IMG/VR virus record: IMGVR_UViG_3300010885_044958
Location: 70,237-134,236 of that record
Strand: one strand, 5' to 3'
DNA: 64,000 nt
Origin: a virus
This document shows, one piece after another, positions 7,326 through 7,412 of the stretch (position 1 is its first letter; each line of letters begins with the position of its first letter). The notes below the pieces were generated by a model. The model was not told the origin of the DNA, did not search any database, and saw nothing but the letters and a program-made list of their open reading frames with translations. A program made the translations under genes and the position numbers.

Positions 7326-7412
7326 AAAAAATCTGGGGCGCATTTTATTACTAAAACACTATTCAATAATCGAGGAACTCAAAAAACCTTACTATTAAAC
7401 TTATACCCCAGA
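7326..7412 (-). ncRNA. candidate sRNA A (three-way junction; loop UUUUUUGAGUU)
   Basis: outer stem TCTGGGGT/GCCCCAGA+T6; inner stem TTTAATAGT..AGG/CCT..ATTATTGAA; second hairpin with a GUAA tetraloop; G.U pairs form only on the minus strand. Confidence 0.6.

Follow-up and report, generated by a model that had tools for sequence, protein, structure and literature searches.

A structured element behind a small gene of a crAss-like phage and its loop complementary to a recurrent start-region tag

The structured element at 7326–7415

The 64,000-nt stretch analysed here (the window) is the second half of the 134,236-bp virus record IMGVR_UViG_3300010885_044958, the whole genome of which (134 kb) we refer to as G0. 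It belongs to an uncultured freshwater crAss-like phage; the terminase, portal and head proteins of the record matched crAss-like PHROG families, and its TerL was only ~25% identical to the TerL of named crAss-like and Flavobacterium phages. The subject of this study is a structured element on the minus strand of the window (7326–7415), located between a 61-codon gene (7423–7608) and a 93-codon gene (7032–7313) of the same strand, which displays an 11-nt hairpin loop, UUUUUUGAGUU (7376–7386). This loop is the exact complement of a tag, AACUCAAAAAA, found 0–13 nt 5' of several start codons. We refer to the tag as the start box and to its mirror, with the core UUUGAGUU, as the anti-box; on the plus strand, AACTCAAAA can be read within the position of the loop (7376–7384).

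The minus strand at 7415–7320 folded with a minimum free energy of −28.0 kcal/mol, whereas 200 dinucleotide shuffles had a mean of −12.7 kcal/mol (sd 2.8) and none of them was as good (z −5.48). The fold is a three-way junction with a GC-rich closing stem, P1 (11 bp, 7415–7405/7339–7329), which contains GUCUGGGG/CCCCAGA and is directly followed on its 3' side by a run of six U residues (7326–7331) corresponding to a terminator tail. P2 is a 10-bp arm (7400–7391/7370–7361) with three G.U pairs, at the apex of which an AGG/CCU pairing (7389–7387/7375–7373) closes the anti-box loop, and P3 is an 8-bp arm (7359–7352/7347–7340) ending in a GUAA loop. The plus strand of the same segment reached −11.4 kcal/mol (z −1.93, with 11 of 200 shuffles as good), and the difference between the two z values indicates that the G.U asymmetry in favour of the minus strand is real. 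Thus, both the minus-strand junction and the asymmetry proposed in the original prediction, which had been made from the letters of the DNA, were confirmed. When the full mRNA of the 61-codon gene was folded, the mean unpaired probability was 0.94 for the loop and 0.83 for the start box of the gene itself.

Comparisons with known RNA classes did not identify the element. The Rfam scan of 6800–7900 yielded no credible family at E ≤ 10, the matches to snoR28, PK1-TEV and CRISPR-DR6 (E 1.5–5.9) being at chance level. ARAGORN reported no tRNA and no tmRNA at the element, and the Rfam tRNA model had no match either; a tRNA or tRNA-like identity was therefore rejected, as neither approach found a cloverleaf. 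A hammerhead ribozyme was rejected as well, given that the element had no corresponding Rfam match and that its junction strands are AUAA, A and none. At the DNA level, blastn of 6500–8500 against the phage GenBank collection gave no match, an exact 17-mer of the loop region had five matches in IMG/VR, all by chance and with unrelated flanks, and a direct search for the element in the genomes G1–G5 (G1–G4 are described below) returned only low-complexity matches. Six metagenome DNA runs (freshwater or other) contain the stretch, with no RNA run among the listed holders. The contigs of four DNA runs aligned to 5900–14600 had no variant letters within 7326–7415, so natural variation in the sequencing runs provides no covariation test.

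The element begins 11 nt after the stop codon of gene 7608–7423, on the same strand, and no promoter of the type TTTG-N18-21-TAnnTTT[GT] was found upstream of it, which makes it most simply this gene's 3' untranslated region (3'UTR). As in intrinsic terminators, a GC-rich closing stem and an immediate U-run follow the stop codon; unlike in intrinsic terminators, the "hairpin" is an 87-nt three-way junction, one arm of which shows the 11-nt loop. The closing stem encloses two further helices rather than a simple short loop, and the consensus terminator scan (loop 3–8) omits the element. The stem and U-run directly behind the stop codon are what would be expected if the element were a plain intrinsic terminator or an RNA-stabilising 3' structure, the loop complementarity of which has no function and reflects, for example, a bias towards U-rich flanks and A-rich starts. 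This explanation has to be weighed against the distribution of the box and its mirror in the genome.

Start boxes and their mirrors behind stop codons

On the minus strand of the window, AACTCAAAA(A) precedes the ATGs at 6292 (start box AACUCAAAA, 6295–6303), 11688 (11690–11698), 13093 (13094–13102), 13563 (13575–13583) and 14349 (14362–14370). AACTCAAA precedes the ATG at 9572 (AACUCAA, 9577–9583), AAAACTC precedes that at 11293, and gene 7608, to which the element belongs as its 3'UTR, has the wobble version AACUUAAAAA (DNA AACTTAAAAAA, 7609–7618) directly before its AUG. All eight starts that the original prediction had listed thus carry the complement of the loop, including the wobble at 7608 and the shorter match at 11293, whereas its restriction of the tag to genes of the left arm does not hold, because the tag is also present 5' of the plus-strand genes 14497 and 48232 and of one gene outside the window. 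The full 11-nt loop matches the starts 11688, 13563 and 14349 perfectly and two more over 10 nt, and five left-arm start regions pair with it at −9.2 to −10.0 kcal/mol. Pairing with the box of its own gene, AACUUAAAAAA, also covers 11 nt, with one G.U pair and with the A of the AUG used for the last pair (−7.8 kcal/mol).

To place these occurrences in a broader context, related genomes were collected. The close relatives in IMG/VR are G1 (TerL 78% identical, 65 kb) and G2 (71%, 92 kb), and a more distant pair is formed by G3 and G4 (53–54%). A metagenome scan added one further close relative, the single 16.9-kb contig L049, which was the sole new one among 80 loci obtained with a 357-amino-acid (aa) anchor protein (L046, L047 and L048 proved to be G1 or G2 again). 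The sigma-like protein used as an anchor in viral contigs revealed no relatives, and a 145-aa anchor revealed none in metagenome contigs, for which the search patterns were poor, and only G1 and G2 again in viral contigs. The left arms of the relatives are unalignable at the DNA level, and few of their small proteins are recognisably orthologous. Genes were called with our own simple open reading frame (ORF) caller, which takes ATG starts, requires at least 40 codons and proceeds greedily by length (one call in G1 was corrected by hand); the pooled counts given below refer to the 394 genes called in four phages (G0, G1, G2 and L049).

The original prediction had also proposed a shuffle test for enrichment of the motif at start regions; the motif stands out in its placement and not in its raw number. 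The 9-mer occurs six times against 2.36 expected, which is not striking, as 6 of 100 shuffles also reach six. In G0, by comparison, 9 of the 40 copies of AACTCAA are located at −25 to −1 of called starts, an interval that makes up 1.1% of strand positions (binomial p 5.5e-10), and the corresponding figure for G1 is 8 of 15. Among 105 permutations of the same composition, AACTCAA ranks first in this interval (21 of the 394 genes) and is followed by its own shifted forms and then by a second tag, AACCAAT. In G3 and G4, the tag shows no enrichment before starts.

The mirror of the tag has its own preferred location. On the gene-sense strand, UUGAGUU lies 3–41 nt after the stop codons of four genes of the window: 7608–7423, where it is the loop of the element; 9572–9351, where it begins 3 nt after the stop (9341–9347) and is flush with the 5' base of a terminator stem; 13563–13198 (13187–13193, 4 nt after the stop); and 14349–14110 (14098–14104, 5 nt after the stop), the last two copies overlapping the 5' strand of a terminator stem. 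Such 3' copies are also found in G1 (genes 36651–36866 and 39252–39452, with a third copy 200 nt behind 40570–40854), in G2 (81130–81342 and 68971–68396) and behind two genes of L049. Most copies are 3–7 nt from the stop codon. Within the first 30 nt after stops, TTGAGTT occurs eight times in the four phages against 1.38 expected, and it ranks first among its own same-composition permutations.

A key question is whether the box and the anti-box belong to the same genes. Nine of the 12 genes with a 3' anti-box are also among the 30 genes with a start box: the pooled numbers of genes with both signals, with the 5' box only, with the 3' anti-box only and with neither were 9, 21, 3 and 361 (Fisher test, p 4.7e-9). 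The same four counts were 4, 7, 0 and 147 in G0 (p 1.3e-5), 2, 11, 1 and 102 in G1 (p 0.033), 2, 3, 1 and 83 in G2 (p 0.0075), and 1, 0, 1 and 29 in L049 (p 0.065). In the direct-repeat control, in which the tag itself was sought behind the gene, no association was found (1, 29, 11 and 353; p 0.62). Among the three genes with the anti-box only, the copy lies within the coding region that follows in one (G1), the tag is degenerate in another (G2 84583), and the start was called too far upstream in the third (L049). The variant TTAAGTT, which mirrors the common box variant AACTTAA, was linked to box genes in none of six cases, while the G.U-compatible TTGGGTT (five copies in 3' windows, one of them behind a box gene) is uninformative. 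An enrichment of TTTGGTA behind stops was rejected as a third anti-box, as it represents the −33 box of the next promoter. In G3 and G4, no gene carries both signals, and the mirror follows one stop only, at +70 and, according to our calls, inside the neighbouring gene.

Several other origins of the association were considered and rejected. Among the 12 genes with both signals or the anti-box, the only protein similarities at E < 0.001 are two G0/G1 ortholog pairs; the flanked proteins are otherwise unrelated, so the pattern is not the result of duplication of a paralogous cassette. No target-site duplications were seen and the orthologs are syntenic, which does not correspond to integron attC-like or miniature inverted-repeat transposable element (MITE)-like cassette ends. 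A general complementarity between the 5' and 3' flanks of a gene was rejected in five genomes, where own flanks were no more complementary than the flanks of different genes. Therefore, the phenomenon is specific to the AACUCAA tag and to the AAACCAA tag described below. That the anti-box is preferentially attached to box genes speaks for pairing within a single mRNA, or for a self-limiting loop.

Structural settings, a second tag and promoter-like sites

The anti-box was found in three structural settings. In the first, it forms the 5' strand of a terminator stem (13193 and 14104 in the window, G2 81350 and L049 1977), the 3' strand of which is AACU[C/U] or a wobble version followed by U residues. 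In the second, it directly abuts the 5' base of the terminator stem (9347 in the window, G1 36872 and G2 84748). In the third, represented by the element and its G1 ortholog, it is exposed in the side-arm loop of a multi-branched structure closed by a stem and a U-run.

Two ortholog pairs make it possible to trace these settings between phages. The G1 ortholog of the element (39453–39598) is located downstream of a homologous 66-codon gene (39252–39452) and upstream of the homolog of gene 7313–7032, so that the downstream gene pair is syntenic. The product of the 66-codon gene is 35% identical to that of gene 7608–7423 over 48 aa (E 2e-4 when 12 proteins were compared). Between 7412–7326 of the window and G1 39453–39598, blastn aligned nothing, and all that the G1 locus keeps is a hairpin whose 16-nt loop contains UUUGAGUU; the proposed loop antisense to an enriched start-region tag is in this respect retained at the orthologous locus. 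For the second pair, 9350–9270 of the window and G1 36867–36955, blastn likewise aligned nothing, and the two regions share only UUGAGUUCU, after which wholly different terminator stems follow. The anti-box thus keeps its structural place in both pairs, in a hairpin loop in the first and flush with the terminator stem in the second.

The syntenic neighbour of the element, the 93-codon gene 7032–7313, has no box. Its start at 7313 is favoured by a public protein of 93 aa, identical to the query over its full length (100%), and by an A-rich leader; its longest ORF opens at ATG 7343, inside the P3/P1 helices of the element, and this start is less likely. Two homologous proteins were found for it. 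As a further observation on the relatives, gene 33397–33675 of G1 is directly followed by a run of GGTCAG/GGTCAT/GGTCAA hexamer repeats (33690–33760, plus strand).

The plain-terminator explanation can now be evaluated. It accords with the non-significant raw 9-mer count, with a loop shuffle test of p ~0.03 and with the weak fold of the G1 ortholog (z −0.97). It does not account for the association of the anti-box with the start box of the same gene and the clean direct-repeat control, for the first rank of TTGAGTT among permutations behind stops, or for the retention of the anti-box as the sole thing kept in two unalignable ortholog 3'UTRs, and we therefore consider a functionless loop quite unlikely.

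In folds of the full mRNAs of the window gene 9572 and its G1 ortholog, the helix between the 5' and 3' ends was predicted with probabilities of 0.77–1.0 for six of the seven core pairs; for the window gene alone, six pairs had 0.77–0.98 and the last one 0.43. The first structural setting suggests another possibility, an attenuator, in which the anti-box would be contested between the 5' box and the terminator stem's 3' strand (AACUC/AACUU), and the occupancy of the start region by ribosomes would decide between termination and read-through into the next gene. The anti-box is indeed the 5' strand of the terminators at 13190–13150 and 14102–14061 of the window, G2 81350 and L049 1977. Such competition would not apply to the element, in which the anti-box occupies a side loop and P1 is untouched, or to the flush class (9341, G1 36872); moreover, the local terminator wins in the thermodynamic model (box:anti-box P ≤ 0.2). 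We regard an attenuator as very improbable.

The second tag provides a parallel case. Behind the 481-aa gene 50350–51795, at 51805–51828 on the plus strand, the loop UUUAUUGGUUUA is presented as GAGG-UUUAUUGGUUUAU-CCUC and mirrors the box AAACCAAUAA, which precedes the late-gene starts 39559, 42648 and 46458. The syntenic 3'UTR of G2 keeps GUUUAUUGGUUUA in a different stem (GUUGUAC/GUACAAC), and in G3 and G4, where the stem differs once more, the box reads AACCAACAAAA and the loop reads UUUUGUUGGUU; the loop and the box change together. Further positions belonging to this system are 2685–2775 (minus strand) of the locus L029 and 41786–41792 (minus strand) of G3. G0 and G2 also share a conserved loop, CUUAUUCYUAGG, in the terminator that follows. 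The gene 50350–51795 itself has no box, so its loop would have to act at a distance. This co-variation of loop and box supports RNA pairing as the putative logic of these phages. Co-variation between phages had been proposed as a test for the loop and tag of the element; it is seen in the AAACCAA sister system, while for the AACUCAA system the evidence is of co-occurrence, the box and its mirror being present together in G0, G1, G2 and L049.

The box of gene 14349 is associated with a ribozyme. It begins one base after the predicted cut of a RAGATH-1 hammerhead detected by Rfam at 14443–14367 on the minus strand, with a score of 57.8 bits against a gathering score of 56.3. The core of this hammerhead reads GUGAUCA in place of CUGAUGA, and the two changed positions pair with each other in the active fold. 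The 3' strand of its stem I is the AAACU of the box. Cleavage is predicted after UUC, between 14372 and 14371; the 3' product would begin with AAACUCAAAAAAC, and the mRNA of gene 14349 would start exactly at AAACUCAA. No such hammerhead match was found in the parts of the relatives that were searched (G1 20–60 kb, G2 60–92 kb, and L049). A trans-cleaving hammerhead assembled from the anti-box and the box was also considered and rejected, because the anti-boxes are followed by perfect terminator stems and not by catalytic cores. On the opposite strand, a promoter-like site of gene 14497, TTTG-N20-TATATTTT, ends 9 nt 5' of AACTCAA. For these two genes (14349 and 14497), the box is predicted to lie at the extreme 5' end of the mRNA. 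Between them, the divergent promoter region contains a 9-bp inverted repeat, TTGAGTTTA-N21-TAAACTCAA (14454–14492).

Promoter-like sites are otherwise rare in this part of the genome. Start regions of the phage are rich in TTAAAA/TAAAAA, and sites of the type TTTG-N18-21-TAnnTTT[GT] are few in number; A-rich starts together with such sites are as would be expected if the host is a member of the Bacteroidota. The minus-strand left arm (~6–14.5 kb) contains ~20 small ORFs, nearly all without a family match, and only two promoter-like sites were found on the minus strand at 6.3–14.4 kb, at 10667 and 6722. The small genes of the left arm may be read by a non-host polymerase, and, by analogy, the scarcity of host-type promoters would fit early transcription by a virion polymerase. 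In phage phi14:2, a virion polymerase transcribes the early genes, and no common upstream motif was reportedly detected for the resulting transcripts (10.1101/2020.03.07.982082). The small-gene arm also encodes, at 7973–8548 on the minus strand, a 191-aa protein with a LuxR/GerE-type helix-turn-helix (HTH) domain (Pfam, 24.4 bits with a cut-off of 23.5) and weak matches to ECF-sigma and PHROG sigma-factor families, which is a possible phage transcription regulator.

These features raise the question of whether AACTCAA(A) is an asymmetric site in DNA, recognised by a phage protein or polymerase, of which the 191-aa HTH protein and the virion RNA polymerase would be examples. Facing one way at starts and inverted at ends, it could be an operator, a looping site, an initiator or a terminator signal, with RNA complementarity as a by-product. 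Such a site would explain why the 7–8-bp core is invariant in both orientations, at unrelated genes and in four phages, with no compensatory extension, and why an inverted pair in the divergent promoter region 14454–14492 has its upstream copy between the −33 and −7 boxes. The lack of host-type promoters of left-arm genes, the phi14:2 virion polymerase transcripts with reportedly no common upstream motif detected, and the LuxR/GerE-type HTH and sigma-like protein encoded 560 nt upstream would also be in line with it. The inverted copies, however, occur in defined RNA contexts, either in a hairpin loop, as in two orthologs with differing stems, or within terminator stems or flush with them. If the site were read both ways, TTAAGTT should be linked to box genes, and it was in none of six cases; and with a box 0–3 nt from an ATG, there is no space for a promoter element of the gene concerned. 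In addition, the loop and the box of the AAACCAA system change together while its stems differ between G0 and G2. Taken together, a site acting at the DNA level appears improbable to us.

Proposed pairing within one mRNA and its relation to known systems

The original prediction had assigned the element to a single dedicated trans-acting small RNA (sRNA). In this form, a separately made sRNA would shut off or guide the whole class of box genes as a temporal switch, and the position behind gene 7608–7423 would be irrelevant. The match of the whole loop to the starts 11688, 13563 and 14349 and, over 10 nt, to two more, all of them better than its match to its own box, is what would be expected of such an RNA. 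Similarly, the 16-nt loop of the G1 ortholog matches the start of G1 34679 (12 nt) better than its own (8 nt), and the loop at 51805–51828, behind a gene with no box, would have to act at a distance. On the other hand, the element starts 11 nt after a stop codon with no promoter of the expected type upstream, and its mirror is not singular: it recurs in at least four 3'UTRs here and in more of them in the relatives, tied to box genes in 9 of 12 cases, which a single master regulator does not predict. The claim of one dedicated sRNA was therefore not upheld, and we consider this alternative unlikely.

The best reading is that the element is one member of a box/anti-box family that flanks single small genes, with the box 5' and the anti-box 3', near or inside the terminator. 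Specifically, we propose, with about an even chance of being correct, that the element serves gene 7608–7423 as a structured 3'UTR and intrinsic terminator and that pairing of its anti-box would limit the access of ribosomes. The anti-box (UUUUUUGAGUU; core UUUGAGUU) would pair with the start box AACUCAAA(AAA) of short-leader phage mRNAs, and the helix would cover the A-rich ribosome landing site, which has no Shine-Dalgarno sequence, and probably the 5' end of the mRNA too. Its first target would be its own mRNA, closed 5' to 3'; a stable terminator fragment may also pair with five other left-arm mRNAs, the boxes of which match the loop better. As a result, the translation of a set of genes would be limited or their stability changed. 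Action within a single mRNA, of the kind known from icaR and hbs, is favoured by the link between the box and the anti-box of the same gene and by the short distance to the stop codon, whereas the loop, the 11 nt of which match other genes better, may also act in trans. Structure, enrichment, association and conservation were observed; from these we infer that RNAs with these ends exist, that they pair and that pairing has an effect.

A number of points weigh against this reading. The transcript, its ends and its effect have all been deduced from the DNA. The box of gene 7608 needs a G.U pair and pairs with the loop more weakly (−7.8 kcal/mol) than the boxes of five other genes, and the loop shuffle test is modest, with five targets at ≤ −9 kcal/mol against a shuffled mean of 0.63 and 8 of 300 shuffles reaching five. 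The contact of the loop with the 5' end is of the pseudoknot type, for which the folding model gives P = 0 by construction, and in four of the nine classified 3'UTRs the anti-box is buried in the terminator stem, with P ≤ 0.2 for the long-range helix. The overall fold of the G1 ortholog is no better than that of shuffles (z −0.97). Of the 30 box-bearing genes, 21 have no anti-box, and the gene calls on which these counts are based come from a crude ORF caller, one call in G1 having been corrected by hand. The upstream arm of the inverted repeat at 14454–14492 is located between the TTTG (−33) and TATATTTT (−7) boxes, which fits a DNA site equally well. Finally, the core is an invariant 7–8 nt with no gene-specific extension, and own flanks show no extra complementarity genome-wide, so mutual pairing is not the sole possible constraint.

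A more far-reaching version of pairing within one mRNA can be considered, namely a private code for translation based on closed loops of small phage mRNAs. Since the anti-box follows the stop codon by 3–7 nt in most copies and the box precedes the start codon by 0–13 nt, the helix would bring the stop and the start together. In such a closed loop, the footprint of a terminating ribosome would cover the anti-box and melt the helix, thus freeing the start or allowing re-entry into the same frame, while an mRNA deprived of its ribosomes would close up; for at least one gene, a ribozyme would trim the mRNA so that it begins exactly at the box. We give this joining of the stop and start of small phage mRNAs only a slim chance. 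If true, bacterial viruses would have a counterpart to the closed loop of eukaryotes, evolved in a host lineage unable to use Shine-Dalgarno pairing.

Pairing between the ends of an mRNA has been described in other bacteria. In icaR of Staphylococcus aureus, as here, a 3'UTR motif is complementary to the ribosome-binding site (RBS) region of its own mRNA, and closure of the mRNA with a limiting effect on translation was proposed (PMC3868564). The icaR target is the Shine-Dalgarno sequence of one gene, whereas here it is a private A/C tag in phages of a host lineage that makes no use of Shine-Dalgarno sequences, some ten unrelated genes in four phages carry the pair, and the motif is fixed 3–7 nt after the stop in most copies or presented in a displayed loop. 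The hbs mRNA of Bacillus subtilis resembles the present case in the end pairing of a small, short mRNA, which couples stability with translation; it differs in being a single host gene, strongly Shine-Dalgarno-dependent and with no shared tag (PMC5737220). In B. subtilis, too, 8-nt anti-RBS sequences located hundreds of nucleotides downstream pair with the RBS, block translation and lower the RNA level, which makes the proposed contact physically feasible; these anti-Shine-Dalgarno-like 8-mers are described as depleted from natural genes, while the mirror described here is enriched and conserved and has a fixed position (PMC12697547). With a 3' motif complementary to the start region of its own gene, the element and its family show one of the features expected of 5'UTR–3'UTR pairing.

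The 3'UTR-derived enterobacterial sRNAs of the CpxQ, SroC and DapZ type act via Hfq or ProQ on diverse targets. The seed described here could, like theirs, act on other mRNAs after processing, but it is present in many copies. The loop of the element has the properties of the seed of such an sRNA, as it is accessible, conserved and complementary to several starts. In regulatory terminator loops (PMC11979758) and in 3'UTR sRNAs, the seed is located next to or inside its own terminator, as it is here. In the crAss-like phage literature, no description of such an RNA was found, with sRNA papers judged by title only.

Bacteroidota ribosomes are reported not to use Shine-Dalgarno pairing (PMC6847099, PMC7797042), and the usual RNA handle on translation is therefore missing in these hosts. 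The phages of this clade seem to have created handles of their own, in the form of short A/C tags near starts and their mirrors in 3'UTRs and terminator loops. If the pairing proves true, it would provide a testable rule for the timing or limiting of small early gene expression in the abundant but little-understood crAss-like phages, it would extend 5'–3' UTR pairing from isolated cases, such as icaR and hbs, to a reusable module, and it would offer portable parts for the control of translation in Bacteroidota.

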